Source: an uncultured archaeon
GTDB lineage: Archaea > Altiarchaeota > Altiarchaeia > IMC4 > SCGC-AAA252-I15
NCBI GenBank assembly: GCA_902384455.1
Contig: CABMCB010000079.1
Location: forward strand, 618-64,617
Reading direction: 5' to 3'
Length of the DNA stretch: 64,000 nucleotides
A program made the translations under genes and the position numbers. Shown here in pieces: positions 1,409 through 63,053 of the stretch (position 1 is its first letter; every line of letters starts with the position of its first letter). The notes below the pieces were generated by a model. It ran no database searches and was not told the origin of the DNA. It was given only the letters and a program-made list of their open reading frames with translations.

Positions 1409-1409
1409 C

Positions 1410-8011: not shown

Positions 8012-8163
8012 GGTGCGGTTAATCCCCTTACGCGGCAGTTGGAATCCTCGTTAGTTTAGGGTTTCATCTGCCCGTTTAACGCTTTAAGGAAAAACTTCTT
8101 TATTGTATAACGCGCAGAGGCGGAGCATCCAGACGTACGGTTTGGAGGCTGCTGCGCGATTTT

Positions 8164-13533: not shown

Positions 13534-13538
13534 AAAGT

Positions 13539-13946: not shown

Positions 13947-13957
13947 AACGTTACCGT

Positions 13958-14371
13958 ATGTCTGTTCCCGCCAAAAGGAAGGTTTTGTCGCCGCAGGAAT
14001 ATTGCCCCATACGTCAGACCCTAAGCCTTCTGGGGAAACGCTGGACCATCCTCATAATCAAGGAAATATATTTTAGCTCGCACAAGAAACTGGCGTTCAA
14101 CGAGCTTAGGAAGAAGCTGGGAAGCGCAAGCGCCAAAGTTCTTTCTGAACGCCTCAAGGAGATGATTGATGCGGGCATAATCAAGAGGAAAGCCGTTAAT
14201 TCGGAGCAAAAAAGGGTTTATTATTCGCTCACGCCAAAAGGAGACGACGCATGCCACATAATCGACGAGATGAAGAAGTACGGTTTGAAATGGGGCGGAA
14301 AAGAGACGTTTGACTGCGATAAAGTCGACTGCGAATTCTGCATCAATTACTCCCCCAAAGAGGTAAAGTAA
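13958..14371 (+). CDS. HxlR-family winged-helix transcriptional regulator
   Basis: The CPIRQTLSLLGKRWTILIIKEI motif is typical of HxlR/DUF24 regulators. The gene is divergent from the MerT-like gene. Confidence 0.75.
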   Translation: MSVPAKRKVLSPQEYCPIRQTLSLLGKRWTILIIKEIYFSSHKKLAFNELRKKLGSASAKVLSERLKEMIDAGIIKRKAVNSEQKRVYYSLTPKGDDACHIIDEMKKYGLKWGGKETFDCDKVDCEFCINYSPKEVK

Positions 14372-14427
14372 GGGGCATCGGTTGCCGCAGCATTACGGTT
14401 ATAAGCTTTTACCTGTAAGTCATTAGC

Positions 14428-15975: not shown

Positions 15976-16078
15976 CCAAGTATAGTCTCGTACACCACAC
16001 TGCACTGCCTTTATTTAGGGGGTGTTTGCGTCTAATAAACTGAAGTTATTAAGCCGCCTTAACCCAAAATTAACCCTA

Positions 16079-16996
16079 ATGGAATCGTCAGCTGTCAGCT
16101 ACGGGGCGGCCACAGTGGTTGCGGCGTTTGCTAGCGGTAAAGGAGGGGCAGTATCGACCCAACTGAAGACATTCGCCAACGTAAATCTCACTAAAGGAAA
16201 AAAAATCGAGGCCGAAATCATAGGCGGCCCTAAGGAGGATACTACTCTGCTTAAGGCCTGTGTTAAGAGGACTTTGGATTTTTATGGTTTCAATTTTGGT
16301 TGTAGGATTGAGACTGAAAGTGACATTCCTATTGCGCGCGGGCTGAAGAGTTCTTCTGCTGCGGCGAATGCGGCGTGTCTTGCTGTTGCGGGCGCTTTGT
16401 GCAAGGAGCACGGGCATGTAGAGCAGACGCGCTTAGGGAAGAGTCCGCCTGAAAACGTCTATTTCATAGGCAAAAAGCGAGTTGACGCTCTTGACGTGGT
16501 CAAATTGGGTGTGGCTGCGGCTTTTGACGCTAAGGTGACTGTTACGGGCGCTTTCGACGACGCCGCTGCGAGCATGCTGGGGGGGTTCGTTCTTACCGAC
16601 AACGCGAAGAACGTCATAGTCCGCAGAGGCGAGATGGAGGAGCTGCCCGTAATAATCCACGTGCCTAAGATGCGTTCATACAGCGGCAAAGTGGACTTAA
16701 GCCGGCTGATGCTGCTAAAGAGGGAGGTAGATTTCGCCTGGGAGGAGGCGCGCAAAGGAGGCGTCTACACCGCATTGACTCTCAACGGAATACTGACTGC
16801 AAACGCACTAAACCTTTCCACAGAACCCATCTTCCAAGCTTTGGACGCAGGCGCAATAGCCGCCGGAATAAGCGGGAAAGGCCCGTCTACTGTCGCCATA
16901 TCGCGCAAGCCGGAAGATGTTGTTGCCGCATGGAGCAAGCTGCCCGGCAAAATCATAGTCACCAAACTAAACAACAAGAAAGCAGAAATCTTATGA
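16079..16996 (+). CDS. aroK: Shikimate kinase, archaeal GHMP-kinase type
   Basis: GHMP motif GLKSSSAAANA and an N-terminus (SYGAATVVAAFASGKG) typical of archaeal shikimate kinases. The ORF track starts at GTG 16022. ATG 16079 fits better with the TATA-like tttattta near 16011. Confidence 0.8.
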   Translation: MESSAVSYGAATVVAAFASGKGGAVSTQLKTFANVNLTKGKKIEAEIIGGPKEDTTLLKACVKRTLDFYGFNFGCRIETESDIPIARGLKSSSAAANAACLAVAGALCKEHGHVEQTRLGKSPPENVYFIGKKRVDALDVVKLGVAAAFDAKVTVTGAFDDAAASMLGGFVLTDNAKNVIVRRGEMEELPVIIHVPKMRSYSGKVDLSRLMLLKREVDFAWEEARKGGVYTALTLNGILTANALNLSTEPIFQALDAGAIAAGISGKGPSTVAISRKPEDVVAAWSKLPGKIIVTKLNNKKAEIL

Positions 16997-17412
16997 CAGC
17001 AAAGACGCAGTACATAAGCCTAAAGACTCTTGGAGAAGGCTCCATAATAGACTTGACTTCTAAGGTCGCGGAGATAGTAGAGAAATCCAAAATAAAGGAA
17101 GGCACAGCAACAGTTTTCTGCGTCGGAAGCACAGGCGCAATAAGCACAATAGAATACGAGCCCGGCCTGCAGAAGGATTTGCCCAAGATTCTAGACAAAA
17201 TCGCGCCATCCGACTTCCCCTACAGCCACCACACCACATGGAACGACAACAACGGAAGAAGCCACGTCCGAGCGACATTAATCGGCCCAAGCCTCACCGT
17301 CCCAATAACATCAGGCAAGCTCGTTTTGGGTCAGTGGCAGCAAATAGTGTTCATTGAGTTGGACACGCGAGGAAGAGACAGGCAGATTGCGGTGCAGATA
17401 ACCGGCGAATAA
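16993..17412 (+). CDS. YjbQ/UPF0047 family protein (secondary thiamine-phosphate synthase family)
   Basis: IDLTSKV...ATVFCVGSTGAISTIEYEPG, then H-rich SHHTTWNDNNGRSHVRATL, then LVLGQWQQIVFIELD. The ATG overlaps the aroK stop (ATGA). Confidence 0.8.
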   Translation: MTAKTQYISLKTLGEGSIIDLTSKVAEIVEKSKIKEGTATVFCVGSTGAISTIEYEPGLQKDLPKILDKIAPSDFPYSHHTTWNDNNGRSHVRATLIGPSLTVPITSGKLVLGQWQQIVFIELDTRGRDRQIAVQITGE

Positions 17413-17415
17413 AGT

Positions 17416-18741
17416 CTACCTGATAATCCCGCCAATCTTCCTGAAGAATTCCAGCGTCTTTCTGTCGCCTTCCTTAACGTCGTCCCTAATCAAGTTCACG
17501 GTGAAAAAAACGCTTTTTTTGCCGTCAGGAACCTGCGGCCCAGTGTAAACGTCTTTCGCCTTGACGCTCACCGCCAAATCGACGCTCTGAATCAAAAGCT
17601 CGGTAATGTAATGCTCATCGCAGGATGCCGGAAGAAGCACACTGTAGTTCCTTTCGGCGACACCAGACTTCTCAGCCCGCAACCTCTTGAGCTCGCCGTC
17701 AGGCAACAACCTAAGGTTACTAAGCTTCAAAGTCTTAGTCTTATCTCCGTCCCTCAAAGTAAGGTCATGCGCAGTCACAGACTCAACAGTCCCCAAATGC
17801 ACAGCACCCGAGTAAATATGCGCAACCGCAACCTGACGGCCAATCCTCTCCTTCAAAGCAACAATCTCAGCAACAAGCCCCGCAATAGCCTTATCTGAAC
17901 GCCCCATCGCCTCATCAACATCGCCGAAATGACGCGCAGCCTTCACCATCGCCGAAACGAATCCATCTTCGTCGCGGGATTCAAGGCCGTTCGAAAGGGA
18001 TTCCGCTGCCGACATGAACGTTTCGTGGACTAACCCGGTGTAAGGATTGTACAGCTGGATTTCAGCGTAAAGATGCGGGTCCTGGCCAATTATCCGCCCT
18101 ATCATGTCAAGCATCAGGTCGTATACCGGGGAGGCGTATTCGCGGCTTTCCTTTACGTTGAACTGCAGGTCGCATAGTGTTTTCCCCACGCTAATGTAGG
18201 CGAAATGCGTCAACCCCTGGACTACGGCCATCACGCGGTCGTGTTCGTCGGGTGTGGTTGTGATGACGCGGGCGCGTTTTTTGTGAAGGATGGTTGTTAT
18301 GCGGTGAGCCCCCTTTTTACCCCGAATAGGCGTAAGTACCACGGGCTGGCCTTCGAATCCTCGCACTCGCGGCCCGAACACGGGGTGGCTTCCGAGAATC
18401 TCAACTCCATTTGCGGCGAACTCGTCCATTATGCGGCAGGGCTCTGTTTTGACGCTCGTTAAGTCCATTATTAGGCCGCCGTGTTTGATGTGGGGTGCGA
18501 CTTCTTTTATGCCGTCGTATGTTGTTGCGATTGGCACTGTGATTATTACGGCTTCGGCTTCTTTGGCTGCTTTGACGTTGTCGTGGGTGTATTCTACGCC
18601 TAGTTCTTTGGCTGTGGCTTTGCCTTTTTCTTTTGTGGGGCCGGTGATTGTGACTTCCCATCCTTCTTCCTTTAGGAGTTGGGCGAACAATCGTCCCATC
18701 CCGCCGTATCCGCCTATTATGGCGACTTTGTGCGTCGACAT
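17416..18741 (-). CDS. tyrA: Prephenate/arogenate dehydrogenase with an extra C-terminal ~150-aa extension
   Basis: Rossmann motif VAIIGGYGGMGRLFA and a TyrA core (GSHPVFGP, HDR...QGLTHF). The C-terminal tail ends in a ferredoxin-like segment, DVYTGPQVPDGKKSVFFTVNLI. Confidence 0.8.
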   Translation of the reverse strand: MSTHKVAIIGGYGGMGRLFAQLLKEEGWEVTITGPTKEKGKATAKELGVEYTHDNVKAAKEAEAVIITVPIATTYDGIKEVAPHIKHGGLIMDLTSVKTEPCRIMDEFAANGVEILGSHPVFGPRVRGFEGQPVVLTPIRGKKGAHRITTILHKKRARVITTTPDEHDRVMAVVQGLTHFAYISVGKTLCDLQFNVKESREYASPVYDLMLDMIGRIIGQDPHLYAEIQLYNPYTGLVHETFMSAAESLSNGLESRDEDGFVSAMVKAARHFGDVDEAMGRSDKAIAGLVAEIVALKERIGRQVAVAHIYSGAVHLGTVESVTAHDLTLRDGDKTKTLKLSNLRLLPDGELKRLRAEKSGVAERNYSVLLPASCDEHYITELLIQSVDLAVSVKAKDVYTGPQVPDGKKSVFFTVNLIRDDVKEGDRKTLEFFRKIGGIIR

Positions 18742-45180: not shown

Positions 45181-46449
45181 TCAAGAAGCTACTTTCTCCC
45201 TAAGGAAATACAGAAAAGCAGCCACCACAAGCATAACCGACACAGCCACGGCAAAAATCCTCACGTCAAAAGAACCCAAATCAAAAGGCAACCCTGACGC
45301 AGGACGCTCAGAAACCACAAGATGCGTATCATCACTCACAACCGAATAATTAGACCCGACGCCGTCCCCGTAATAAACTTCAGCCCTCGAAAAAATATCG
45401 ACAACCTCCTTAGGGCTATACGTGTAAAACAAAACAAAACTCTCCATAGGCATAAGAGTAGGCAAAGTATAGTTCGCCTGCCCACCCACGACGTCAAAAG
45501 AATCAAGAAGAGGAAAATCCCGGATGAAAACATCATACGCCGTCCCATTGCCAACATTGCTTACGGTAATTGAAACGTTCCCCAAACCACCCACAAACCC
45601 CTCAGAAGGTCCGTCGCGCTTCACCTTCAAAACAGGCCTTTCAGGATGAACAAACACCGTAAGAGTCGGCGTCACGTTTGAGTAGGCCTTGCCTTTTTCG
45701 TCGTAAAAAGAGTATGAGAGCGGCTGAAACTCGAATGCCCCCAACTTGGTTGCGTTCAGTCTGACTGCGTAGGTGACGATTCCTCCTGCATTCAAGCTCC
45801 TGTTGGTGTAGTTGGGGTTGCCGTCCAACACCTGAAACACATCAGGTATGTCCTGTTTTAGCTGGACGCCGAAGGCGTGCTGTCCTCCGAAGTTGGCGAT
45901 GGACACTTCCATGTTGAATGGTATGCCTATGATCTGCGTGATGTTGTAGACTGAGCGCACGACTGCAATGTCGGGGCGCACGAAAAGCGGGGGTACCATG
46001 AGGCGTACGTTTCTCATTAGGAAGTCGTCGTAGTTGTTTTCTAGTCCTGCTTTTATTGTTAGGCGGTTTTTTCCTGCGGTTACTGCGCCTGGTTTTAGGG
46101 GTATTACGCATCCTTCCCAGTTGAGGGATTTTTGGCTTAAGCAGAGGTATCCTGCGTTTTCGCCGTTTATTTTTATGTCGTCTCTGATTGAGACTTCAAA
46201 TAGTTCTATGACTAGAAACGCGTTTTTTGGCGTGGACTCGAGGTCAAAGACGTAAGTGTATTCGATTCCGACTGGCCTGCCCGGGTCGAATCCCCAGTCG
46301 TTGAGGCTGTCGCCTATGTATACCTGCTTATCTCCTATAGGCACGGGCGCGTAATCCCAGGGTATGGATTCCTCCGTGGCGCAGGAGACAGAAGTAAGTC
46401 CTGCTATGAACAATATGATTAATGACGCGTGAACTAGGTTCTCCCGCAT
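45181..46449 (-). CDS. Membrane-anchored surface protein with beta-sandwich repeats
   Basis: Signal peptide (ASLIILFIAGLTSVSCA), two CARDB/DUF11-like segments (VSIANFGGQHAFGV and ITVSNVGNGTAYDV), and a C-terminal TM helix. It is convergent with copy E at a 1-nt gap. Confidence 0.65.
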   Translation of the reverse strand: MRENLVHASLIILFIAGLTSVSCATEESIPWDYAPVPIGDKQVYIGDSLNDWGFDPGRPVGIEYTYVFDLESTPKNAFLVIELFEVSIRDDIKINGENAGYLCLSQKSLNWEGCVIPLKPGAVTAGKNRLTIKAGLENNYDDFLMRNVRLMVPPLFVRPDIAVVRSVYNITQIIGIPFNMEVSIANFGGQHAFGVQLKQDIPDVFQVLDGNPNYTNRSLNAGGIVTYAVRLNATKLGAFEFQPLSYSFYDEKGKAYSNVTPTLTVFVHPERPVLKVKRDGPSEGFVGGLGNVSITVSNVGNGTAYDVFIRDFPLLDSFDVVGGQANYTLPTLMPMESFVLFYTYSPKEVVDIFSRAEVYYGDGVGSNYSVVSDDTHLVVSERPASGLPFDLGSFDVRIFAVAVSVMLVVAAFLYFLREKVAS

Positions 46450-46455
46450 GGTTTA

Positions 46456-47187
46456 TCAGCCGTACATCGGCGAATCGCACTCCATCTGCTTGTACCCGTC
46501 GCGGCCTCTTTTTACGTGTTCTGTGATGTCCTTCATCTTTTTTTCTATTTCCTCTCCCACTTCGGAAAGTTTGGCGGTATCGACTTTTATGCCGAGTATG
46601 TCGTTTAGTATGGTTAGTAAGCTGGCTGCTGCCGCTGGGTCTGGGGAGTAGACTGTTTCCACCATCAAGCTGACGTATGGAACCTCGTTTGTCCTGCACC
46701 AGAACAGTAGTTCGCTTGATACTCCGATCATCATTCCTTCCTTTAGGTGTGGAACTTTAAGCGCGTCAAGTTTGGTCTGGCAGGCGTTGTGGCTGCAGAG
46801 GGTGAATATGGCGTGGTCCGCGTTGCTTTGAGTTCCTGTGACGCCGGCAAGAAGTATCATCTCTTTAGGCTTAATCTGGTTGAGCCAGTCTTCAAGTGCC
46901 TTAGAGAACTCAGGTATCTTATCCAGGGGTATTACCGCCTCGGAGTAGATGACTACAAACTGGTTTTTCGCATAAATCTGAATCGGCTTTAATGGAGTGC
47001 CGTCGTGGACCACCGTTATGCCAGCGGTTATGTCCGAATCAATGAAGCCGATTAACTCCATATCAAGCGCCGCAATAATCTGCCCTGCTGCTATGGTGGA
47101 CACGTATCCTTTTCCTGGGAACGCTTCGATTACCGTCGGCTTGTCCGAAACTGTTTTTCCTTTAAACAAATGAATGGTTGCTGTCAT
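46456..47187 (-). CDS. PAC2-family proteasome assembly chaperone
   Basis: PTVIEAFPGKGYVSTIAAGQIIAAL N-terminal motif and a length of 243 aa. Confidence 0.6.
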   Translation of the reverse strand: MTATIHLFKGKTVSDKPTVIEAFPGKGYVSTIAAGQIIAALDMELIGFIDSDITAGITVVHDGTPLKPIQIYAKNQFVVIYSEAVIPLDKIPEFSKALEDWLNQIKPKEMILLAGVTGTQSNADHAIFTLCSHNACQTKLDALKVPHLKEGMMIGVSSELLFWCRTNEVPYVSLMVETVYSPDPAAAASLLTILNDILGIKVDTAKLSEVGEEIEKKMKDITEHVKRGRDGYKQMECDSPMYG

Positions 47188-51988: not shown

Positions 51989-54900
51989 GTGAGGATGGAC
52001 GACAAAACTACATTTAATCCAACAAAAAACAGGCCGTCCATCAACCCCGAAATTCCTCTTTTCGTTCCCTACAAATCCAAGCCGGCAAAGCATACCAACA
52101 AATTGGTTGTCCTCTTAGCCGCAGTATTCATCCTTTCCGGCGTCTTTTTGGCCATCCGCGCCTCATTCCCGGCGACACCACAAGTACAAGGCGCATTCCT
52201 GGGGGTAGACTTAGACAAGATATTCGGGAAACAAACAGGCGGAGATTCAAAGATACAATACGACGTAGAAAATACCTGGCGAATGAGCGGGAAAAACCCG
52301 CAGCACACAAGATTCTTCAACGTGTCAATAAACGGCACCCTCATCCCCGAATACATATGGTACGGCTGGGCGAACTCATTATACACAACACCCATCGCAT
52401 TCAACGACAAAATATACGCTATATTAGACGGCTCTTACTACTCCGGATACGGAAGCATGTACAACTCATATGCCTACCAATACTGCTACTACACCGGACT
52501 ATACGAATTCGACGCCAGAGACCTTACAGTCCTCCAATACAACAACCCCTGGTATTATTACAACTACTGCCCCTACTCATATGGAAGCTTAGCCGGCGCA
52601 GGAGACAAAATATTCTACACCGACGAATACACGCGCGACCTAATAGCCGTAAATGCGTCAAACATAAGCCAAGTACTCGGAAACTTCAGCACCGCAGACA
52701 ACTGGTGGCAACGAGGATCACTGGTAGTAATAAACGGCACAAGCACAGACGACTCAGACCCCATAGTGTACACCTCAGAAAGCTACAACCGGACACTGTA
52801 CCGGATAAACGGCACAAACATGGCCAAGCTAGACCAGTTCATAGGCCTAGGATACGTCTACGACGGACCAACATACTTCAACGACAACCTATACTTCTCA
52901 GGAGGCGACGGATACATATACCGGACATACCCCAACCTAACACTAATCCAAAACTACAGTACAGGCGGAAGCGTAGGCCAAATGGCGGCAGGAGACAACG
53001 GCCTGATATACTTCTTCGGGACAATGAGCTACAACGACACCAACGGCACGCTATACTATTTTAATGGGCTATGGGCCCTAAACAGCAGCAACATAAGCCA
53101 AATCGTAACAAACCAATCCGGCATCGATAGATACTACGAATACTGGGGAACATGCAGCCCAGTAATAGCCAACGGCATAGTATACGGCCAAGTCTACAAT
53201 AGTAGCAGCGGCAGATTTATGATTGCCGCATACAACGAAAACGACCTGTCCCAGCAACTTGCAGCCCGTGAGTTAGTGCCCAGAGGATACCTCAATTACT
53301 GTCCGTATTACTACTACTGGTACTACGGGTACTATTGGCAATATGACCCATACTGCTACTACTACTATTACCCATCAAATTACATCTCCGGATGTCCCAT
53401 AGCGGGAGGAGGATACATATTTTTGGGCGACAACCACTGCCACTTCTACTCATTCAACGCAACAACCCTTGAATTGGTCGACTCATACGACCTGCTGAAC
53501 GACGGATACTACTACTGGGGCAACTACGCAGACACATGCACATGGTACCCATTCATAAGTGGCGAATCAGTTTACGCTGGAGTAACAGACTCAAAATACT
53601 ACGCAGCCAGCTGGTGCAGCCAAGTAAACACAACAGACAACAGCGTCTGCGATTCATGGGCATATAGCAGTTCATCCGAAGCCCAAGCATACCTAATCAA
53701 GTTCTCAGCATTGGTAGCCGAGGCAAACTTAACCCAAACCGCAACACCAGCCAGCCCGCAAAAATGGAACACATCAATCACATTCAGCTGCAACTACACA
53801 AACTCATCAGGAAGCCCCATAACAGGCTCAAAAGTCACCCTATCAATAGATTCCGACAACTACACAGCAACATACTCCGGCGGAGTATACTCCGTGACAA
53901 TAACCAACCTCACCCGAGGAGCCCACTCATGGTTCTGCAACGCAAAAGGCACAGGATACGAAGCCAAAATGGGAACACCCCAGACATACAGGATCAACCA
54001 AGAACCCATATTCGGATACAGGATATTCCAGCCAAACGGAAACGAATCAAGAGACACATACATAATGCAAAACTACGAAACATCATACTGGTGGAACTGG
54101 GCATGGCTCGCCGGATTAAACCACTACGAACATGACCCATACCTCAGAGTAGGAGCCGGATGGTACACGTGGTGCTACGACTGCGGCTCACCATACGGCT
54201 GGTGGGGATACACATCATGGGACTACAGAACACTAATATACTTCGACCTATCAAAACTACCACAAAACTCCACCAACATCACATCCGCAAGCGTAGGCCT
54301 GCACACCGACAACCTATACTGGGACTGGACGTGGTTCACAATCTACAACATGACCAACGGCTGGGCAGATAACGCAAGCTGGTTCATGAACGTAACAGAA
54401 ATAGACGCATGGTGGAACGACACCGAAGGCAACCTGTGGTACAACGGAACATTCTGGAACCAATCAGGAGGAGACTACGACTCTAACGCAATCAACCAAA
54501 CAACAATGGGCTGGCAATACTACTGGACATACTCTAACTGGCTATACTTCGACATAGCATCAACGCTAAGAAACTGGATAGGACACCCAGAAATACAAAA
54601 CCTAGGATTCCTACTAGACAGCTTCGGAAGCGGAGGAAGCTACACCAACTACAACTACTACGACCAAACAAACTTCGACTCATCAGAAACAGAAAACCCC
54701 GCAAACAGACCAAAACTACAAGTAAACTTCACAATAACAGACCAAACATGGCCCAGAAACACAAACAACAGCAACATAATAGCAAGCAGATTCTTCTGGG
54801 ACCCAGACAACGAAAACCTCACATACAACGTACTAGGACTAGATAACGACCTAGAAAACATGACCGCAATCATAGACACAAACTCAACCATCATAACATT

Positions 54901-55819
54901 CGTCCCCACCGAATGCTGGTACGGCGTCATAAGAAACATACGAATAATAGCAAACGACAGCTTCGGAACAACAGGAATAAGCAACAACTTCACACTAAAC
55001 GTCACATACACAGAAGGAGCCTGCAGCCACAACTACCCACCCCGAATAGGCAACGTAAACTGCACAAACCCAATAGACCTAACCGCCGCAGATTACGTAG
55101 CCATAACATGCAACGCAACATTCACAGACTCAAACGGATGCTCAGACGTAACAGGCGCAAACGGCACATTCTGGGACTCAACAAGCACAACATTCACAGC
55201 CGCAGACAACACATACAACCACTACACAAACGCAACATGCAGCAGACTATGCGCAGCAAGCCTAGTAACATGCGCATTCAACCTCGCATGGGTAGCCAAC
55301 GCAACAAACGACTGGTACGGAAACATCACAATCTGGGACAGCGACAACCAAAGATACAACTACACAAGCGGAATACAAGTAAACACAATAACAGGAACAC
55401 GCGGCAACACATCATCAATACCCGCAGGAGACTTCATAATAAACTTCAGCATAACATACACCGGAGGCCAAGTAATACCCGGCAGAACAAGCGACACCGA
55501 CGCAGTATCCACATTCCACAACACCGGAAACACCAAAATGAACCTGGAAGTCAACGGCTCAGACATGAGCTGCGCGCTAGGAACATCAATACCAGTGGCC
55601 AACATAAAATACGACAACAAAACCCTAAGCCACTCAAGCAAATGCGGCACACTAGCAACCAGCCTAGACAACACATGCACATCACTATCCTCCTACTTCC
55701 TGCTCGCCCCAGGCAACCCCTACCCAAAGAAAGACGTCTACTGGAGCGTCCAAGCGCCAATACCCCTCAAAGGACCCTGCAACGGAAGAATAGGCGTACT
55801 CGCAATAGCAGCAACCTAA
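51989..55819 (+). CDS. Giant (1276 aa) membrane-anchored or secreted adhesin-like glycoprotein: beta-propeller + Ig-like + DNRLRE-like + C-terminal family-S module
   Basis: N-terminal TM or signal anchor (LVVLLAAVFILSGVFLAI). A PQQ-like propeller region is rich in Y/W/N. RTLIYFDLSKLPQNSTNITSASVGLH resembles the DNRLRE domain core. From about 55031 the motifs YPPRIGNVNC, FTDSNGCSDV and HNTGNTKMNLEVNG are colinear with family S. Confidence 0.7.
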   Translation: MRMDDKTTFNPTKNRPSINPEIPLFVPYKSKPAKHTNKLVVLLAAVFILSGVFLAIRASFPATPQVQGAFLGVDLDKIFGKQTGGDSKIQYDVENTWRMSGKNPQHTRFFNVSINGTLIPEYIWYGWANSLYTTPIAFNDKIYAILDGSYYSGYGSMYNSYAYQYCYYTGLYEFDARDLTVLQYNNPWYYYNYCPYSYGSLAGAGDKIFYTDEYTRDLIAVNASNISQVLGNFSTADNWWQRGSLVVINGTSTDDSDPIVYTSESYNRTLYRINGTNMAKLDQFIGLGYVYDGPTYFNDNLYFSGGDGYIYRTYPNLTLIQNYSTGGSVGQMAAGDNGLIYFFGTMSYNDTNGTLYYFNGLWALNSSNISQIVTNQSGIDRYYEYWGTCSPVIANGIVYGQVYNSSSGRFMIAAYNENDLSQQLAARELVPRGYLNYCPYYYYWYYGYYWQYDPYCYYYYYPSNYISGCPIAGGGYIFLGDNHCHFYSFNATTLELVDSYDLLNDGYYYWGNYADTCTWYPFISGESVYAGVTDSKYYAASWCSQVNTTDNSVCDSWAYSSSSEAQAYLIKFSALVAEANLTQTATPASPQKWNTSITFSCNYTNSSGSPITGSKVTLSIDSDNYTATYSGGVYSVTITNLTRGAHSWFCNAKGTGYEAKMGTPQTYRINQEPIFGYRIFQPNGNESRDTYIMQNYETSYWWNWAWLAGLNHYEHDPYLRVGAGWYTWCYDCGSPYGWWGYTSWDYRTLIYFDLSKLPQNSTNITSASVGLHTDNLYWDWTWFTIYNMTNGWADNASWFMNVTEIDAWWNDTEGNLWYNGTFWNQSGGDYDSNAINQTTMGWQYYWTYSNWLYFDIASTLRNWIGHPEIQNLGFLLDSFGSGGSYTNYNYYDQTNFDSSETENPANRPKLQVNFTITDQTWPRNTNNSNIIASRFFWDPDNENLTYNVLGLDNDLENMTAIIDTNSTIITFVPTECWYGVIRNIRIIANDSFGTTGISNNFTLNVTYTEGACSHNYPPRIGNVNCTNPIDLTAADYVAITCNATFTDSNGCSDVTGANGTFWDSTSTTFTAADNTYNHYTNATCSRLCAASLVTCAFNLAWVANATNDWYGNITIWDSDNQRYNYTSGIQVNTITGTRGNTSSIPAGDFIINFSITYTGGQVIPGRTSDTDAVSTFHNTGNTKMNLEVNGSDMSCALGTSIPVANIKYDNKTLSHSSKCGTLATSLDNTCTSLSSYFLLAPGNPYPKKDVYWSVQAPIPLKGPCNGRIGVLAIAAT

Positions 55820-55820: not shown

Positions 55821-56783
55821 ATGAACAAAAACCTGATAACAACAGCACTAATACTCATAGCCCTGACAGGCACAGCAACATCCCTAAGCATAGCAATCTC
55901 CCCCAGCATCACCAGAACGTCCATAGCCCGCGGACAAGAAATAGTCCAAAACATAAGAGTAACAACCCAAGACGAAGGCACATTCATAACCGTAGTAAGC
56001 GTAACAGGCTCCGCAAAAGGATGGACAACAATCCTAAACCCCTCAGTCAACGTAACCAAAAACCAACCCGGAAACATAAAAGTCAACATACAGATACCGC
56101 CAGAAGCAACAAACGGAGACTATGAATCCAAAATCTACATAACCCTACAACCCTACGTAGAAGCAACATCACAAGACATGGGAATGTCAGCCGAAATGAC
56201 CGGAGTAGCACTCATAGAAATAACCGTCACAGGCACAGGACTACTAGAACAAAAAATACTCCACATAGACATAGAAAGCGCAAAAGAAAACGACCCCATA
56301 AGACTAAACACCATAATAGCCAACTCAGGAAACATCCTCCTAAGAACAGCCCTCAACGTAAACATCCTAGACCAAGACAAAAACACCCTAAACAAAGAAT
56401 TCAACGAATACATAACCCTACCCGAAGGAACCCAACAACCATTCAACTTCAACATAACCTCCGGACTACCCGCAGGAAGATACTGGGCAAACGTCACATT
56501 CCTCTTCAACAACATAAAAAAACAAAACATAATGCTACCCTTCACAGTCCAAAAAAACCAGATAAAAAGACCCGAAACCACAACAACAACCACACAAACA
56601 CCCACAACAACCACAACACCCACACAAGAAACACCCCAAAACACCACAAAAACACCACAACCCGAAACAGAACAACCCACAACAATACCCTGGTCAACAA
56701 TAACCCTAATAATCCTAGTAGCCGCCATAGCCTACGTGCTATACTGGAGCAAGAAACGCGAAACAGCACGAAGATTTATATGA
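55821..56783 (+). CDS. Membrane-anchored surface beta-sandwich protein with Thr/Pro stalk (family M-like)
   Basis: Signal peptide, two beta-sandwich-like segments, a TTTTTQTPTTTTTPTQETPQNTTKTPQPETEQPTT stalk, then a C-terminal TM helix and basic tail. It starts 1 nt after the adhesin stop. Confidence 0.75.
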   Translation: MNKNLITTALILIALTGTATSLSIAISPSITRTSIARGQEIVQNIRVTTQDEGTFITVVSVTGSAKGWTTILNPSVNVTKNQPGNIKVNIQIPPEATNGDYESKIYITLQPYVEATSQDMGMSAEMTGVALIEITVTGTGLLEQKILHIDIESAKENDPIRLNTIIANSGNILLRTALNVNILDQDKNTLNKEFNEYITLPEGTQQPFNFNITSGLPAGRYWANVTFLFNNIKKQNIMLPFTVQKNQIKRPETTTTTTQTPTTTTTPTQETPQNTTKTPQPETEQPTTIPWSTITLIILVAAIAYVLYWSKKRETARRFI

Positions 56784-56811
56784 CCTCGCCAAATACAATA
56801 GGGATACATAA

Positions 56812-58011
56812 ATGACAAAAAAGGCGCATAATACGACCAAACAAATTCTCAAAAAAGCCCTAATAGCAACAATAATCCTCACATTCTACACCCTACAAAC
56901 AAACGCCGTAAGCATAGGCGCAGGCCCAGCAGTACTCAACTTCAACAACATGGTACGCGGCGGATACGCAGAAGACTCAGTCACAGTATCAACAAGCGGA
57001 ACAGAAAACCTAACCGTAGTAATCGAATCCACAGGCCAAATAAAAGACTGGGTCACAGTATCAACCCCCATGCCAATGCCCCTAATGGCAGGCGAAAGAA
57101 AAAACATCAAAATCGTAGTCAGACCCCCAGTAACAGCCTCACCCGGAGAATACTCAGCAATACTATACATAAGAGCAGCACCCACCGCAGGCATAGGAAA
57201 CTCAACCGGCCTAGCACTAGGCGCAGGAGTAGGAATACAAATCAACGTAAACATCACAGGCCGAGAAATCAAAGGATACAGCCTAAAAGCAGTCAACGTC
57301 AAAGACACCGAAGTCACATTCCCCATAGACATCACAACCCTAATTGAAAACACCGGAAACATCCCACTACAACCCACATTCAAAGTCAAAATACTAACAC
57401 CCACCGGAGAAGAAACAACCGCCCAAAAAGAATTCACAGTAGGCACATTCAACCCCGGCATACAAGAAAACTACACATTCACCCTACCCTCCACAGGACT
57501 AGCCGAAGGAAAATACGCGGCCAGCATCGCAATAAAAATAGAAAACAACGAAACCGACCTAGCCAACCTAGGTTTCACCCTACTCCCACCCGGCAGCCTG
57601 CGCCTAAAGGGAGAATTCAAGAGCATAACACTATCCGAAAACACCATAGCACCCCAAAAACCCGTAAAAATCACCGGCATATTCCAAAACACCGGCGAAG
57701 TACCGACAAACGCTCAACTAACAGTTGAAGTATACAAAGGCACAGAACTCATAAAGACAATAGACTCAACAGAAACACGAGTAGACGCAGGAGAAACCCA
57801 ACTACTCGACGTAACATACACCTCAGAACAACCAGGAGACCTAACCATACGAGGCACAATAACATACAGCAAAAAGAAGACGCCAGAAAAAGAAATAACA
57901 CTCATAGTATCCGGAGGCGGATTACCCACCACATACATCGCAATCGGAGCAGCAGTAATAATACTGATAATCGGAGGGGTAGTCTACTACAAACGGAACT
58001 ATGCACTATAA
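56812..58011 (+). CDS. Membrane-anchored surface beta-sandwich protein, family M
   Basis: VSIGAGPAVLNFNNMVRGGYAEDSVTVSTSG N-terminal block, ENTGNIPL, GKYAASI, and a C-terminal TM helix. Confidence 0.8.
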   Translation: MTKKAHNTTKQILKKALIATIILTFYTLQTNAVSIGAGPAVLNFNNMVRGGYAEDSVTVSTSGTENLTVVIESTGQIKDWVTVSTPMPMPLMAGERKNIKIVVRPPVTASPGEYSAILYIRAAPTAGIGNSTGLALGAGVGIQINVNITGREIKGYSLKAVNVKDTEVTFPIDITTLIENTGNIPLQPTFKVKILTPTGEETTAQKEFTVGTFNPGIQENYTFTLPSTGLAEGKYAASIAIKIENNETDLANLGFTLLPPGSLRLKGEFKSITLSENTIAPQKPVKITGIFQNTGEVPTNAQLTVEVYKGTELIKTIDSTETRVDAGETQLLDVTYTSEQPGDLTIRGTITYSKKKTPEKEITLIVSGGGLPTTYIAIGAAVIILIIGGVVYYKRNYAL

Positions 58012-58040
58012 ACAATAATAACAAAAAAAGGGAGAAAACC

Positions 58041-59267
58041 ATGACAAAAAAGAACCTATGCGTTGTAGTCGCCGTGCTAACGGCATTAATGGGATACGCT
58101 TCTGCCGTAAGTCTGGGCGCAGGCCCGGCAGTCGTAGAATTCCCCGAAATGATAAAAGGCGGATACGCCGAACAAGTCATAACGGTATCAACAGCCGGTG
58201 ACGAACCCCTAATCGTCAAATCAGAAGTCACAGGCGAAATCAAAAGCTGGGCGTCAGTAGAAGAAGGAGGCACATTCAAACTCGACCCAGCCGCCCGAAG
58301 AGACGTCAAAATAATGGTAAACCTCCCCATCGACGTCCCCAACGGCAGATACGAAGGAATAATCTACTTCCGCGCAGCACCAGCATCAAGTGCATCAGGC
58401 GAAGGAACAGGACTATCACTCGGCGCAGGAGTAGGAATACGCGTAGGCATAACAGTAAGCGACAAACAAGTAGAAAAATACGAACTACGACAAGTCGGAG
58501 TCAAAGACACAGAAATAGGATTCCCCGCAGAATTCACAGCAACACTAGCAAACACAGGAAACGTCCGCTTAGTCCCAAAAATAACAATCACAATAATGGA
58601 CGAACTAAAAAAGAGAACAATAAAAACATTCGACTACGCTGAAACAGAAATAAAACCAACATCCTCCGAAACAATAACAATAAAAGTCCCAACAAACGGA
58701 ATAGACGTAGGCAAATACACCGCAAAAGTAACAGCAGACAACGGACAAGAACAAGAAGTATTCTTCAACGTACTAGAAAAAGGCACACTAGCACTCAAAG
58801 GAATCCTACGCGAAGTCAAAGCCGAAAAAGTCTGGGTAGAAGAAGGAGAAATGGTCAAAATAGTCGCCACACTCGAAAACACCGGCGAACTACCCATCGA
58901 AGGAGCAATATTCAAAGGAGAAGCATACCTAGTAGACGACGCATACGGAACCAGAAAACTAGTCGGAACATTCGAAAGCGACCAAATGGACGTACCCAAA
59001 GAAAAAACAGTCGAACTATCCAGCTACTACACACCCGCAATAGGCGGCCGCTACGTCATCCGCGGTGAAGTAGCATACGGCGGCAAAAGAACCCAAAGCA
59101 AAGACACCATACTAAACGTAGTGGCAAAGCCGACAAACTTCCTACCCTACGCAGTAATCGTAGGCGTAATAGTAATAGCCATAGTCTACTACCTAACACG
59201 AAAAACCGAAGACGGAAGAACACGCCGCTTCAAAAAGATTTGGGCAGACTACTTAGGGCTAAAATAA
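58041..59267 (+). CDS. Membrane-anchored surface beta-sandwich protein, family M
   Basis: VSLGAGPAVVEFPEMIKGGYAEQVITVSTAG. It is colinear with 32919-34238 throughout (VGKYTAKVTADNGQEQEVFFNVL, LPIEGAIFKGEAYL, GRYVIRGEVAYGG). It has a C-terminal TM helix and basic tail. Confidence 0.8.
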   Translation: MTKKNLCVVVAVLTALMGYASAVSLGAGPAVVEFPEMIKGGYAEQVITVSTAGDEPLIVKSEVTGEIKSWASVEEGGTFKLDPAARRDVKIMVNLPIDVPNGRYEGIIYFRAAPASSASGEGTGLSLGAGVGIRVGITVSDKQVEKYELRQVGVKDTEIGFPAEFTATLANTGNVRLVPKITITIMDELKKRTIKTFDYAETEIKPTSSETITIKVPTNGIDVGKYTAKVTADNGQEQEVFFNVLEKGTLALKGILREVKAEKVWVEEGEMVKIVATLENTGELPIEGAIFKGEAYLVDDAYGTRKLVGTFESDQMDVPKEKTVELSSYYTPAIGGRYVIRGEVAYGGKRTQSKDTILNVVAKPTNFLPYAVIVGVIVIAIVYYLTRKTEDGRTRRFKKIWADYLGLK

Positions 59268-59280
59268 GGAGGACAAAAAA

Positions 59281-60000
59281 ATGATCAAAAAAACCAAAAC
59301 AGGAATCCCCGGAGTGGACGAACTCATAGGCGGAGGCATACCAGACAAAGCAGTCATAATAGTATCAGGATCCCCCGGTATCGGGAAAAGCAACTTCGCA
59401 ATGCAATACATATACAACGGAGCAACAATGTTCAATGAACCCGGCGTATACATAACCGTAGAAGACACACCCGAAAACGTCAAAGCATACGCACAAGAAT
59501 TCGGCTGGGACCTAGACAAACTCGAAAAAGAAAACAAAATAGCAATAGTCGCCCAACCAATATACGGCGACGACAAAGAAATGAAAAGAGGAGGCAAAGA
59601 CCGCAAAGACACCCTATCCGAAACAATAAAAAGAATAGGCGCAAAAAGAGTAGTACTAGACAGCGTAACACTATTCAAATACCTATTCAACGACGACATA
59701 GCACGAAGAATAAACCTCCTAAACTTCATCAAACAAGTAAAAGACTCCGGCTGCACAACAGTAATGGTAGCAGAACAACACGAAAGCTCCCCAAACATAA
59801 CATACCTAGACGAACACTTCCTAGCAGACGGCCTACTACTCCTATTCTGGAGCAGACACCGCGAAAAAGCAGAAAGATGCTTCGTAGCAGTAAAAATGAG
59901 AGGCTGCGAAATCAACTCAGACATGAGGCCCATGAAAATAACCAACAAAGGCGTCATAGTCTACCCAACACAAGTACCATTGACGTTGGCCTCCGACTAA
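59281..60000 (+). CDS. Single-domain KaiC/RecA-superfamily ATPase (COG0467-like)
   Basis: GIPGVDELIGGGIP, Walker A GSPGIGKS and Walker B RVVLDS; 239 aa. Confidence 0.8.
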   Translation: MIKKTKTGIPGVDELIGGGIPDKAVIIVSGSPGIGKSNFAMQYIYNGATMFNEPGVYITVEDTPENVKAYAQEFGWDLDKLEKENKIAIVAQPIYGDDKEMKRGGKDRKDTLSETIKRIGAKRVVLDSVTLFKYLFNDDIARRINLLNFIKQVKDSGCTTVMVAEQHESSPNITYLDEHFLADGLLLLFWSRHREKAERCFVAVKMRGCEINSDMRPMKITNKGVIVYPTQVPLTLASD

Positions 60001-60052
60001 AAGCCAGTAATCCCGTCAACACGGCCGATTCACCGTTACTTTAATCTGAGCG

Positions 60053-60634
60053 ATGCCAGTTACCCCAGTTGGACGGAGTTCAGGGATAGACATAAACTCG
60101 GACCTGCAAGGGGCTCAGATTCTGGTTCTTGTCATACCCGAAGACCAGTATAACGACAAGGTTATGGCAATCCTAAAGAACCTTGCAGAGAGCAACACAA
60201 ACAAAGTCTGCTATGTCTCATTGAATCGGCCGTATTCCTCTCTTAGGAATAATCTTGCGTCTGCGGGGGTGTCAATTAACAGCATATATGTTATTGATGC
60301 TATCACTAAGACTGCGGAGATGGCTGAGAACACGGAGAATGTTGAGTTCATTTCTTCTCCTGATGCGTTGACTGAGTTGTCTCTTGCGGTAAGCAATTCT
60401 TTTGACGTGAAGAAGTTCAATTACTTGTTCTTTGATTCATTGTCGACTCTTCTTGTTTATGAATCGGATAGGGTAGTCACTAAGTTTGTTCATTTTTTGA
60501 TGGCTAAGATTAGGGTTGTAGAAGCTAGGGCTATATTTACTGTCTTGAAAAGGGACGTTGATTCTGTGCTTTTGAAGGACATCAACATGTTCGCGGATAA
60601 GATAGTTGACTTGGAGTACTGGAATCCCAAATGA
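60053..60634 (+). CDS. KaiC-like-fold paralogue lacking Walker A (probable pseudo-ATPase)
   Basis: The length and hydrophobic beta-strand pattern parallel KaiC-like domains (ILVLVIP, VCYVSLNRPY, YLFFDSLSTLL as a Walker-B-like strand), but no GxxxxGK[ST] is present. It is a paralogue of the next gene. Confidence 0.5.
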   Translation: MPVTPVGRSSGIDINSDLQGAQILVLVIPEDQYNDKVMAILKNLAESNTNKVCYVSLNRPYSSLRNNLASAGVSINSIYVIDAITKTAEMAENTENVEFISSPDALTELSLAVSNSFDVKKFNYLFFDSLSTLLVYESDRVVTKFVHFLMAKIRVVEARAIFTVLKRDVDSVLLKDINMFADKIVDLEYWNPK

Positions 60635-61245
60635 AAGCATTAGCTGACGTTAAAAACGAAGTCTCACAGTTGATAGGGAAAGCTGACACTTCGGACTCCT
60701 TCCTTATTGTGGTAAACTCAGGGTATCTGCAGGAGGTTACTGCAGACGTAGTCCGCGAATTCCAGGAAAGAACAACTTATGGGATATATGTCTCTCTTAA
60801 TAGGCCTTATTTCAGCGTGAAGAAGTATTTGGTGGAGCGGGGGGTTGACGTGGAGAGGGTCTTTTTTGTTGATTGTATCACTTCTGCGGCGACAAATGCT
60901 CAGTTTATTAATGACGCTAATGTTTTTTTTGCAAAGCACCCGGAGGATATCCGGCCGGAGGGTAGTATTCTTACGTCGATTAATAGGTTCATTAAGGCTA
61001 CGAGTGGTGAAAAGTTCATTGTGGTGGATGCTTTGAGGACTCTTTTGTTGCATAATGACGTTGAGGAGGTCTCTCAGTTTGTACATCATATTCTATCTCT
61101 CACGCATGGTCATCGCGTTAAGATTGTTTTTCTGACTTTGTGGGAGGAGGATATGGAGGTGATTCAGCGTCTTGGTATGGCGTTTGATGAGATTGCGCTT
61201 GTTGGCAGTGAAGATGGGTATATAGTTCCGCTGGATATCGATTAG
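60631..61245 (+). CDS. KaiC-like-fold paralogue lacking Walker A (probable pseudo-ATPase)
   Basis: It shares FLIVVNS, IYVSLNRPYFS and FIVVDALRTLL with the preceding gene. The ATGA start overlaps the preceding stop. Confidence 0.5.
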   Translation: MKALADVKNEVSQLIGKADTSDSFLIVVNSGYLQEVTADVVREFQERTTYGIYVSLNRPYFSVKKYLVERGVDVERVFFVDCITSAATNAQFINDANVFFAKHPEDIRPEGSILTSINRFIKATSGEKFIVVDALRTLLLHNDVEEVSQFVHHILSLTHGHRVKIVFLTLWEEDMEVIQRLGMAFDEIALVGSEDGYIVPLDID

Positions 61246-61340
61246 CCTTTTTTTATCCCCTTTTTCGTGATTCCTCTCACATAGGGGTTTCGTATTTTCC
61301 TTTTTTTTCTCACTTTTGTGTGAGTGAACATCACAATAAA

Positions 61341-61515
61341 ACACACATCTTATATTTATTATATAGTATATAATTACTATATTTATTAAATTATTTTATA
61401 TTCTACAAATAAAAATTACTTATTTATAACACATATATTATATATAACCAAATAAGAAATTTTTAATTTCGCAAATATTTTCAGATAAACCGTAAAATAT
61501 TCTTTCTTTTTATCG
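61341..61515. other. Near-pure A+T tract 1
   Basis: For example, 61381-61440 contains only 5 G/C in 60 nt, against about 50% GC in the flanking genes. Confidence 0.9.
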
Positions 61516-61852
61516 CTTTAAGGCACTAAATAAACGTTTTTTTAAGCATTGTTAATATATGAACTTCACACCCTGTTTTTCTATACTCGAGGACAGCAAT
61601 ACCCTGCGTTTAGGTTCGTAGGAGATAAATCGCTATATAGTGTCAGATTTTATAACCCGATTATGGGATAAAATCTATTAGAATCTAGTTTAACGCTCTT
61701 TTGCCCATGGGTTTGCTATCTGTATTTACTACTCCATATCATTATGATATACAGAACATATTTTGGTTAATTTTTATTAGATCATGTAAATTTTCTGCCT
61801 TTTTAATCTCTTAAGTTAATAGATTGATAACTATCCTTTTGGGGGATAAACA

Positions 61853-62080
61853 ATGGAAATAACGTCAAAAGATATAGAAAAACTTAAGTTTGTCAAAGAT
61901 TCGATAGACAAAGGAAATGCTACGACTATCGAAAAAAACGAGTGCTTGCAGGCCCTTGACGCAGTTATTTCCCCAAAGTGTGCCATGTGTAGGATGCCTT
62001 TGGGTGAAGGTTATGCCGTAGTAAATGAGCGAAAGTTCCACGAATCCTGCGTAAAGAAGTATTCTGCTGCCCCTAAGTAA
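61853..62080 (+). CDS. Small (75 aa) protein with a C-x2-C...H-x2-C zinc-binding-like motif
   Basis: CAMCRMPLGEGYAVVNERKFHESC. GGGGGAT lies 7 nt upstream of the ATG as a possible RBS. The gene is embedded between the two A+T tracts. Confidence 0.5.
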   Translation: MEITSKDIEKLKFVKDSIDKGNATTIEKNECLQALDAVISPKCAMCRMPLGEGYAVVNERKFHESCVKKYSAAPK

Positions 62081-62232
62081 TAATATATTTCGTTTTTATG
62101 TTTAAATTTTATGTAATAAAATATTTCATATGAATACATACTATATAATACATATAAAAAATATACTAATTTACAAAAATATAAATTTATAATAATTATT
62201 ATATTATATAAATTAAATTTATCTTATGTGGA
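62081..62232. other. Near-pure A+T tract 2
   Basis: For example, 62161-62220 contains only 2 G/C in 60 nt. Confidence 0.9.
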
Positions 62233-62402
62233 TTTTAGGGTGGGAAATGCGCATTAAAAATGTGAGAGATAGACAAAAAGAAAATGTGAGAAGTATATGC
62301 TCGAAAAACAGTCACTATACAACGAAAAATAAATGCGCAAAGAATCTGACAACTGACCACAAAAAGCAATGGTGTTATTAATTCCCTCTCACATATGTTA
62401 CC

Positions 62403-62693
62403 ATGGAGTTAATGGGACGTTCAATATCATACGGCGTCTTAGTCGGCGGAATTTTCGGATTTATCAACCTCTGGCTGTTCCCTTATGCTCCGCCTGAAGG
62501 AACAGGAAGAACACTAATGCTATTTCCGTCAACAGTAGGATTCATGATAATCAAAGTAGTTCGTTGCACAGGATTCACATGCGGTCCTGAAATCATCCCT
62601 TTCTTGTTTTTAACGCTCCTTACTGGCGCAATTGCGGGAGCTGTTACGGGGTATGTCCTGTCTGAAGTTGTTTACCGGATAAAAACCAGGTAA
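62403..62693 (+). CDS. Small 3-TM membrane protein
   Basis: A hydrophobic 96-aa ORF with no recognisable motif. Confidence 0.45.
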   Translation: MELMGRSISYGVLVGGIFGFINLWLFPYAPPEGTGRTLMLFPSTVGFMIIKVVRCTGFTCGPEIIPFLFLTLLTGAIAGAVTGYVLSEVVYRIKTR

Positions 62694-62705
62694 GAAACCA
62701 TTAAC

Positions 62706-63053
62706 ATGAAGCAGTTGCTGGTTTTTTCAGTAGTCGCCATTTTTTTTCCTCAAATTGTCGCAGGGGAATGCTTAGTCAACGGAAACGTCACTTGCGACAA
62801 GTTTGCTGAAGATCATCTTGCAAAGGATTTCAACGCCTCGTTCACTGATATGGGAGGCATTGGATTATTGATTGTTTTGCTATCGGTTCTTCTCTCCTTT
62901 ACCGGATTTGCGTTTTGGGTGTGGATGATTGTAGATTGCATAAAAAGAAAGGATTTTAGCGATAAGTTGCTTTGGACGGTCGTGTTACTTCTTTCTGGCT
63001 TTGTCGGAGGACTAATCTATTATTTTACGGTGAAAAAGAAGGATAGGGGATAG
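62706..63053 (+). CDS. Small membrane protein with a PLD-N-terminal-like (PLDc_N) segment
   Basis: Signal peptide, then WVWMIVDCIKRKDFSDKLLWTVVLLLSGFVGGLIYYF, which is typical of the short PLDc_N/cardiolipin-synthase-N family. Confidence 0.5.
   Translation: MKQLLVFSVVAIFFPQIVAGECLVNGNVTCDKFAEDHLAKDFNASFTDMGGIGLLIVLLSVLLSFTGFAFWVWMIVDCIKRKDFSDKLLWTVVLLLSGFVGGLIYYFTVKKKDRG

Follow-up and report, generated by a model that had tools for sequence, protein, structure and literature searches.

Here, we examine a 64,000-nucleotide (nt) stretch of DNA from an uncultured archaeon of the Altiarchaeota (contig CABMCB010000079.1; hereafter "the window," with positions counted from its first letter) and, within it, a compact cassette in which two almost pure A+T tracts, capped by inverted palindromes, bracket a gene for a 75-amino acid (aa) zinc-finger protein. 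The cassette is ~1.0 to 1.3 kilobases (kb) long, single-copy, chromosomal, and specific to Altiarchaeota. We tentatively read it as a non-canonical chromosomal replication origin, or as part of one, an assignment that in our judgment falls just short of an even call. The window also carries genes for aIF5A, adenylate kinase, ribosomal protein P1, aminotransferases, homoserine dehydrogenase, topoisomerase I, NurA, and Rad50, and these housekeeping genes mark it as chromosomal DNA. From left to right, the locus contains the following features:

59281–60000, + strand: KaiC-domain ATPase gene (PF06745, E 6e-59; NCBIfam KaiC-domain models matched, RadB models not reached)
59980–60205: strand-composition switch zone, in which the + strand turns from A+C-rich to G+T-rich with an origin-type sign (codon third positions, changepoint)
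60053–60634 (A) and 60631–61245 (B), + strand: two tandem DUF7504 (degenerate KaiC-like) genes (PF24336)
61269–61287, + strand: outlying half-site TTCCTCTCACATAGGGG, left member of a "direct repeat" (motif search)
61305–61327: distal boundary palindrome PAL1, TTTTCTCACTTTTGTGTGAGTG (palindrome search)
61323–61513: distal A+T tract 1, ~190 nt, minimum 6.7% G+C (60-nt G+C scan)
61456–61470: inner palindrome PAL2, GAAATTTTTAATTTC, at the inner end of tract 1 (palindrome search)
61700–61752, + strand: conserved 53-nt central element TTT-N13-CNATC-N14-MAYAYCR-N4-GATAKAC (alignments of relatives)
61853–62080, + strand: 75-aa zinc-finger gene (open reading frame, family search, structure prediction)
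62067–62249: proximal A+T tract 2, ~180 nt, minimum 3.3% G+C (60-nt G+C scan)
62250–62270, − strand: proximal boundary palindrome PAL1, with its outer half AAAATGTGAGAGA intact and its inner half degenerate (GCGCATT) (motif search, comparison)
62281–62291, − strand: extra half-site AAAATGTGAGA (repeat and motif search)
62382–62396, + strand: outlying half-site TTCCCTCTCACATAT, right member of the "direct repeat," 7 nt upstream of the next gene (motif search)
62403–63053, + strand: right flank with two small membrane-protein genes, without synteny to any relative (no tblastn match in other loci)

A scan in 60-nt windows with a cut-off of <20% G+C, set against a mean of 49.3% for the whole 64 kb, returned only three runs: tract 1, tract 2, and a marginal one at 61735–61796 (18.3%). 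The two near-pure A+T tracts that an earlier reading of the letters alone had pointed out (hereafter the original prediction) are therefore real; the intervals it gave for them, 61341–61515 and 62081–62232, contain 14.9% and 9.9% G+C, respectively, and the region 61246–62402 as a whole contains 29%. The 75-aa open reading frame (ORF) that it had placed between the tracts proved to be a conserved gene. Around the tracts, a TCTCACA-type motif recurs whose exact 8-mer, TCTCACAT, would be expected ~1.3 times in the whole window and is found four times, at 61275(+), 62260(−), 62284(−), and 62387(+). The presence of both orientations had been seen correctly, whereas the count of at least five copies is not reached by the exact word. 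All exact copies in the window are confined to the 1.1-kb region. Of the 6-mer core TCTCAC, 6 of the 17 copies in the window fall within 61050–62420, an interval that makes up 2.1% of the window (P ~ 1e-6). The motif copy at 61308 forms a palindrome with GTGTGAG at 61319, and this palindrome at 61305–61327 is the sole CTCAC-N3-10-GTGAG match in the window. The previously reported 1.1-kb direct repeat does exist, with an exact common part of 11 nt, CCTCTCACATA, at 61273 and 62385 (spacing, 1112 base pairs, bp), but its two copies simply belong to a set of six or seven boundary-palindrome half-sites, others of which lie at 62260, 62284, and 61308. Similarly, the pair of AAATGCGCA at 62245 and 62331 is present, yet it carries little weight because the window holds four copies of this word. 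The sequence of the region has independent support, as assemblies of public runs match 61264–61622 and 61731–62481 with zero differences.

Read along the strand of the small gene, the cassette displays a defined order of parts. An outer palindrome TCTCTCACA-N5-6-TGTGAG (CTCACA-N5-6-TGTGAG) is followed by a distal A+T tract of 170 to 350 nt with a GAAAT-N5-ATTTC palindrome at its inner end, and then by 340 to 500 nt of non-coding DNA that holds the 53-nt element. A TATA-like element ~30 nt before the ATG (in most loci) and a gene of 72 to 83 aa come next, after which a proximal A+T tract of ~140 to 235 nt runs from the stop codon to an outer palindrome that faces the opposite way. The boxes at the tract edges are inverted relative to each other (TCTCTCACA... 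at the distal and ...TGTGAGAGA at the proximal edge), in the window as well as in most relatives. Tract 2 of the window begins at the small gene's stop codon, with a T5 run within the next 20 nt.

The same order of parts was found in more than 15 loci from genomes of 29 to 55% G+C (L002/L003, L004–L014, L018/L039, L025, L026/L042, L043, and L045, where L numbers denote related loci), and all cassette loci with a named source are Altiarchaeota. A KaiC-based scan yielded one syntenic relative, L002 (55% G+C), whose KaiC protein is 73% identical and whose layout runs from KaiC and DUF7504 through a TCTCTCACA-N-GTGTGA palindrome, an A+T tract, and the small-gene orthologue to ~350 nt of non-coding DNA, further A+T tracts, and an inverted palindrome. 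Further loci came from alignment scans with the small protein, from a DNA pattern of the conserved non-coding element, and from a DUF7504 scan. A counterpart of the distal PAL1 occupies the equivalent position in L003, L005, L007, L008, L012, and L042; tract 1 has equivalents of 170 to 350 nt in those related loci that are long enough to include it; elements of the GAAAT-N5-ATTTC type, read from the comparison, stand at the position of PAL2 in L005, L006, L007, L008, L010, and L012; and an A+T tract of ~140 to 235 nt lies directly 3′ of the small gene in every related locus. Across loci, the tracts thus keep their length and composition but not their sequence, as expected of unwinding elements. 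The motif is concentrated around the cassette in relatives too, with outlying half-sites in their flanks. The 53-nt pattern matched 7 Altiarchaeota assemblies once each, and its 16 other matches are bacterial and look like chance. In the family scans the small gene always accompanied the cassette, and no relatives of the cassette were found in viral contigs. Both DUF7504 paralogues have orthologues in relatives; the first scan found no close DUF7504 relatives in reference genomes, and the window's own flanking proteins had no record in the assembly collection searched.

The family of the 75-aa protein comprises 48 members at E ≤ 1e-22, with C43, C46, H63, and C66 invariant, and the gene is under purifying selection. 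An AlphaFold2 model (pLDDT 81) displays two helices followed by one CxxC...HxxC zinc knuckle. A Pfam LIM match covered half of the profile (E 0.0095; 16.6 bits versus a cut-off of 22.9); being below the Pfam threshold and having a single knuckle, the protein does not qualify as a LIM-domain member, and a fold search in the PDB gave no significant match, the LIM-like ones being weak (E > 0.4). By eye, the G+C content of the small gene is lower here than in the 55% G+C relative L002. The only other record of the gene itself is one 883-bp contig in ENA assembly ERZ926243 (PRJEB14718; Little Forest Legacy Site trench water). We also observed that 31 of the 48 family representatives reside on contigs of <2 kb, many of them just 580 to 950 bp long, i.e., the piece between the two A+T tracts. 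Assemblies break routinely at both tracts, so that the cassette will be absent or orphaned in most Altiarchaeota bins, a practical problem for which the cassette itself accounts.

The conserved non-coding block upstream of the gene is not a structured RNA. Although its sequence aligns well, RNAalifold on 11 aligned orthologous spacers gave no pairs on the gene's strand for either the 53-nt element or the 340-nt spacer, and Rfam returned no match at gathering thresholds for the window and none at E ≤ 1 for L001 and L002. A GGGC/GCCC palindrome in the spacer that appeared to covary is not kept in L005, L008, and L010, and its covariation is only apparent.

Next to the cassette lies a feature that is more surprising than the cassette itself. 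From position ~24 kb to 59,980, the + strand is poor in G and T at third and four-fold degenerate codon positions, whatever the direction of the genes. At four-fold sites between 55.8 and 60.0 kb, it has A.57–.58, C.35–.40, G.03–.04, and T.00–.03 (A+C 94–97%), and in the KaiC gene, which is the final gene of this strongly A+C-rich left arm and a conserved neighbor of the cassette, A.58, C.38, G.03, and T.01. By contrast, the four-fold sites of 60053–61245 have T.43–.47, G.25–.33, A.12–.17, and C.11 (G+T 72–76%). The composition thus flips from 96% A+C to 75% G+T within ~200 nt. The change starts in the last ~7 KaiC codons (third positions, by eye), and a maximum-likelihood two-state changepoint over all positions falls at 60,205 (support 60201–60214). 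From the switch to the end of the window the + strand is G+T-rich, except within the cassette, while toward the left the asymmetry fades in a patchy manner over >35 kb, with the genes at 45181–47187 showing no bias. To our knowledge, this asymmetry is far stronger than any seen in a cellular chromosome.

We compared third letters at 166 KaiC codons that have the same amino acid and the same first two letters in the window and in L002, and counted A 84, C 71, G 9, and T 2 in the window versus G 63, C 67, A 20, and T 16 in L002. The bias is therefore lineage-specific and filtered by selection. An assembly artefact or DNA damage can be rejected as its source, given that independent contigs are identical, that the bias sits at silent sites, and that the protein is conserved; the direction of transcription can likewise be rejected, because genes on both strands have the same bias. 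Long spurious antisense ORFs occur on the − strand, e.g., at 59259–59957 (232 aa, opposite KaiC) and 56886–57461, since the skewed composition removes stops on the opposite strand, and gene callers could mis-annotate the skewed arm accordingly. As a rule, the strand that is exposed as lagging-strand template gets deaminated and becomes G+T-rich. Here, on either side of the switch, G and T prevail on the strand that runs 5′ to 3′ away from it, and the sign of the switch is therefore that of an origin, with forks diverging from ~60.0 kb. The flip marks the fixed start point of some strand-specific process, be it replication, transfer, or transcription. An arm of the same polarity on the KaiC side is found in L039, L040, and, more weakly, L042; in L040, this left arm is A+C-rich on both gene strands and ends at the 5′ end of KaiC.

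In L002, L008, L010, L018/L039, L026/L042, and the P0039 contig, the cassette lies between KaiC-DUF7504 and a conserved ~342-aa gene, with the small gene directed toward DUF7504. Compared to most of these relatives, the cassette of the window is inverted: blastn aligned 62158–62269 to the reverse strand of L002 9062–9183, which is the left cassette edge there. In L006, the cassette and the 342-aa gene are inverted together, with Topo, NurA, and KaiC contiguous on the same side. The neighbor proteins of relatives that have the cassette at the same position are only ~50 to 73% identical to those of the window, and in more distant genomes the cassette has other flanks. A comparison of relatives for the 1.1-kb segment, which had been proposed with the original prediction, showed that at least six genomes carry it at the syntenic site. 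It was missing from L040 (Altiarchaeota STB_145, 1–18616), where the order of surface-protein, KaiC, and DUF7504-A/B genes is kept, while the right side carries translin, MFS, HerA, and ProRS; that right flank is also rearranged and holds no half-site scar. As a separate observation, the KaiC orthologue of L018 (3008–3723, equal to L039 9163–9878) is divided into two ORFs of 89 and 153 aa, reflecting a frameshift or an assembly error.

The source metagenome offered a view on the abundance of the cassette, through contigs assembled at low depth from four lanes or samples sequenced in the source study. Between 44 and 64 kb there are 17 such contigs, of which 7 lie in 61264–62481, and the share of index words held was 0.18 to 0.39 for the cassette versus 0.05 to 0.11 for 59.3–63.9 kb; the 9.9-kb left flank is listed in no run. 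These small numbers suggest that cassette DNA is present in an ~5-fold excess over flank DNA. The source libraries were prepared with TruSeq Nano and run on NextSeq (PMC5561297), and we would not expect a ~5-fold bias from such preparation. Strain heterogeneity was rejected as a cause, as no diverged contigs were found on the flanks even at 80% likeness. A circular excised form was rejected as well: There were no joints, and contigs crossed both direct repeats into the flanks. Within the very low depth of the four runs, no contig showed an alternative orientation or a circle junction, and all supported the orientation of the window.

How could such a cassette work as an origin? A sequence-specific dimeric factor would bind the boundary palindromes (CTCACA-N5-6-TGTGAG), which are inverted relative to each other, with PAL2 and the 53-nt element as probable further targets, whereupon the two ~190-bp tracts of >90% A+T would act as unwinding elements for helicase loading, so that initiation would take place at the cassette. 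The embedded 75-aa zinc-finger protein would be an accessory inherited along with the cassette, which it may bind or regulate, and the cassette would invert in evolution because it is bounded by inverted repeats. Several lines of evidence argue for this reading. The element is single-copy, lineage-wide, and stable in position. Its paired A+T-rich tracts reside in a long intergenic region, are unique in the 64 kb, and have a composition that is conserved in all related loci; they are flanked by boxes in inverted orientation, and further copies of the box are found in the flanks. Beside the cassette, the strand composition switches with origin polarity, and we count the recurrent cassette-centered inversions (of the cassette alone in the window, and of the cassette plus the 342-aa gene in L006) as a further point in its favor. 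The suggestion of an oriC-like element in the original prediction is hence the best-supported one, by virtue of the unique tracts, the inverted boxes, the one copy per genome, and the nearby switch, though it is tempered by the location of that switch and by L040.

A number of observations weigh against an origin at the cassette. The boxes are not the origin-recognition boxes (ORBs) that had been supposed: The ORB and mini-ORB patterns TTCCNNNGGAA, TTCCANTGGAA, and TCCANNGGAAA had no match in 59.9–62.5 kb, the TTCC-N3-GGAA mini-ORB core is absent from the same interval, and the box that is repeated is a different palindrome. Pfam scans of most long ORFs found no orc1/cdc6 in the 64-kb window (a stretch that covers almost all of the 64.9-kb contig), as had been remarked before, nor was one present among the neighbors checked at related loci. 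A protein-coding gene within an origin would be unusual. Furthermore, the local skew reveals a switch of origin polarity, but at 59,980–60,205 it is located outside the tracts, 1.1 to 1.3 kb to the left of tract 1, and the 1.2 kb between the switch and the cassette has the "wrong" polarity for a leftward fork coming from the cassette. L040 keeps a two-sided switch at the KaiC gene although no cassette, palindrome, or A+T tract was found in the 8 kb to its right. L006 has a moderate switch exactly at the cassette but with the opposite sign, and L002, L008, and L010 display no coherent skew. Taken across loci, the skew therefore indicates a strand-polarity boundary in the neighborhood that is not pinned to the cassette.

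Alternatively, the element might be an insulated regulatory cassette of the zinc-finger gene without any role in replication, which we rate as unlikely. In that case, a dimeric transcription factor, for which the zinc-finger protein itself is a candidate, would use the palindromes as operators, the promoter would lie in the spacer, and the A+T tracts would serve as terminator, insulator, or protein-free bendable DNA. The TATA-like element upstream of the ATG in most loci, the start of tract 2 at the stop codon with its T5 run, the classic dimer-operator shape of the palindrome, the constant association with the small gene, and the lack of a linked replication gene all fit such a role. But stretches of ~190 to 350 bp of >90% A+T on both sides, kept in genomes of 29 to 55% G+C, exceed what a promoter or terminator needs and would generate many spurious TATA boxes. 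Moreover, 340 to 500 nt separate the distal tract from the gene, an outward-facing palindrome of its own caps this tract, half-sites extend into flanking genes, and the nearby polarity switch and the recurrent inversions are left unexplained. Of the promoter or regulatory hub envisaged in the original prediction, the TATA-like promoter in the spacer and the oligo-T, terminator-like start of tract 2 thus hold up, whereas the two palindrome-capped ~190-bp tracts do not find an explanation. A different type of chromosome-maintenance site (centromere-like, SMC-loading, a fork barrier, or a terminus), situated beside a true origin or start at ~59,980–60,200, strikes us as distinctly less plausible. 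In bacteria, parS sites, which are short palindromes, cluster near origins, and this analogy, together with the sharp switch 1.1 to 1.3 kb off the cassette, the switch without a cassette in L040, and the terminus-type sign at the cassette of L006, speaks for such a site. However, nothing origin-like (no A+T-rich DNA, no repeats) is found at the switch in either the window or L040, there are no partition or Xer genes nearby, and a skew sign that is inconsistent across loci supports no single role.

The inverted boundaries could also be those of an invertible or mobile cassette with terminal inverted repeats (TCTCTCACATTTT ... AAAATGTGAGAGA) that site-specific recombination would flip or move and that might exist in extra copies in the community, a notion that we regard as improbable. 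It would account for the two orientations with respect to KaiC (window and L006 versus L002, L008, L010, L018, and L026), for the syntenic site without a cassette in L040, for the other contexts in more distant genomes, and for the ~5-fold excess over the flanks in the source metagenome. Yet no locus has a recombinase or transposase gene within or next to the cassette, each genome has one copy, the same position is kept across relatives with neighbors of ~50 to 73% identity, no contig holds a circle junction or an alternative orientation, and there are no viral matches. Even less can be said for a recent foreign islet with att-like direct repeats of 11 to 13 nt, which we consider scarcely credible. 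The direct repeat CCTCTCACATA at 61273 and 62385, the low G+C content (29% over 61246–62402, below that of the genome), and the non-syntenic right flank might hint at it. But the cassette is ancestral to the whole clade and syntenic in at least six divergent genomes, the repeat is the conserved palindrome half-site, with further copies at 62260, 62284, and 61308, purifying selection acts on the gene, which is apparently G+C-richer in L002, and there is no integrase, no tRNA in the window, and no viral relative. The conserved, syntenic cassette and the half-sites in the flanks of relatives therefore argue against a recent islet, and the att-bordered insert that had been offered as an alternative is not supported. 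A bolder variant of the origin reading is that Altiarchaeota have an origin with its own boxes and an embedded zinc-finger factor, with strand-asynchronous, mitochondrion-like replication starting from a fixed point beside the cassette. In this long shot, one parental strand would stay single-stranded for long, which would strip silent sites almost completely of G and T and produce a gradient of >35 kb, and it might perhaps also explain the local metagenomic excess of cassette DNA.

It is instructive to compare the cassette, read as an origin, to systems that are better known. The mapped Pyrococcus oriC has two A+T-rich regions in long non-coding DNA with inverted ORBs, and further box copies spill into a neighboring gene (PMC1904270). 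Like the experimentally mapped Thermococcales origins (Pyrococcus abyssi and Pyrococcus furiosus), the Altiarchaeota locus combines two A+T stretches, inverted boxes, box spill, and a single site; the skew inflection lies at the locus in Pyrococcus and 1.1 to 1.3 kb from the tracts in the window. It differs in that the Pyrococcus boxes consist of a TTCC...GAA ORB core plus a C/G string and bind Cdc6/Orc1, while the box of the cassette is CTCACA-N5-6-TGTGAG; in that oriC abuts cdc6/orc1 there, while no orc1/cdc6 lies within tens of kb here; and in that the cassette has a zinc-finger gene and a 53-nt element between its tracts. Another relevant case is the chromosomal autonomously replicating sequence (ARS) upstream of orc7 in Halobacterium NRC-1, reportedly described by Berquist and DasSarma in 2003. 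As far as it is cited in PMC1904270, the Halobacterium ARS loses activity when half of the inverted repeat is deleted. With an A+T segment of ~190 bp and inverted repeats of ~30 bp in a much G+C-richer genome, this ARS resembles the cassette; unlike the cassette, however, it needs the adjacent orc gene, has ORB-related sequence, and contains one A+T segment and no embedded gene.

The closest counterpart of the composition bias is found outside cellular chromosomes. Vertebrate mitochondrial DNA likewise features a control region with ~1 kb of non-coding DNA and four-fold sites nearly without G and T on one strand. Its asymmetry changes gradually with distance from the start site, as would be expected if one strand stays single-stranded for long and gets deaminated (C to T, A to G). 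In contrast, we here deal with a 2.4-Mb archaeal chromosome with housekeeping genes, where the sign flips at a point, the asymmetry fades over tens of kb, and close relatives lack it. A segment of ~1 kb with short inverted repeats that occurs in both orientations is also reminiscent of the Hin, Gin, and Fim invertible switches. Unlike those, the cassette has no linked recombinase, its orientation differs between lineages with no alternative one within the population contigs, and its content is A+T tracts plus a conserved gene rather than a promoter that drives flanking genes. The literature that we searched holds no description of the cassette, of Altiarchaeota origins, of Altiarchaeota skew, or of such an asymmetry. 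As Altiarchaeota are uncultured, a single-copy cassette with putative protein-binding elements provides a concrete and testable candidate for an origin. If it indeed is an origin, one with neither canonical ORBs nor linkage to orc1/cdc6, it bears on the variety of archaeal origin recognition.

Further observations concern the surrounding genes. In L004, an Altiarchaeales contig, a gene of the dCMP/cytidine deaminase family (995–1456) directly adjoins the cassette; it is probably a housekeeping gene, and may be compared with the deamination-like asymmetry in the window. Within the window, the product of the gene at 51989–55819 (+) is a secreted or surface protein of 1276 aa, in which Tyr, Trp, Asn, and Thr are extremely abundant and runs like YYYWYYGYYWQYDPYCYYYYYP occur. 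The gene is followed by three genes for CARDB/Ig-like surface proteins (55821–59267), and, as compared with L006, this block is inserted between NurA and KaiC.

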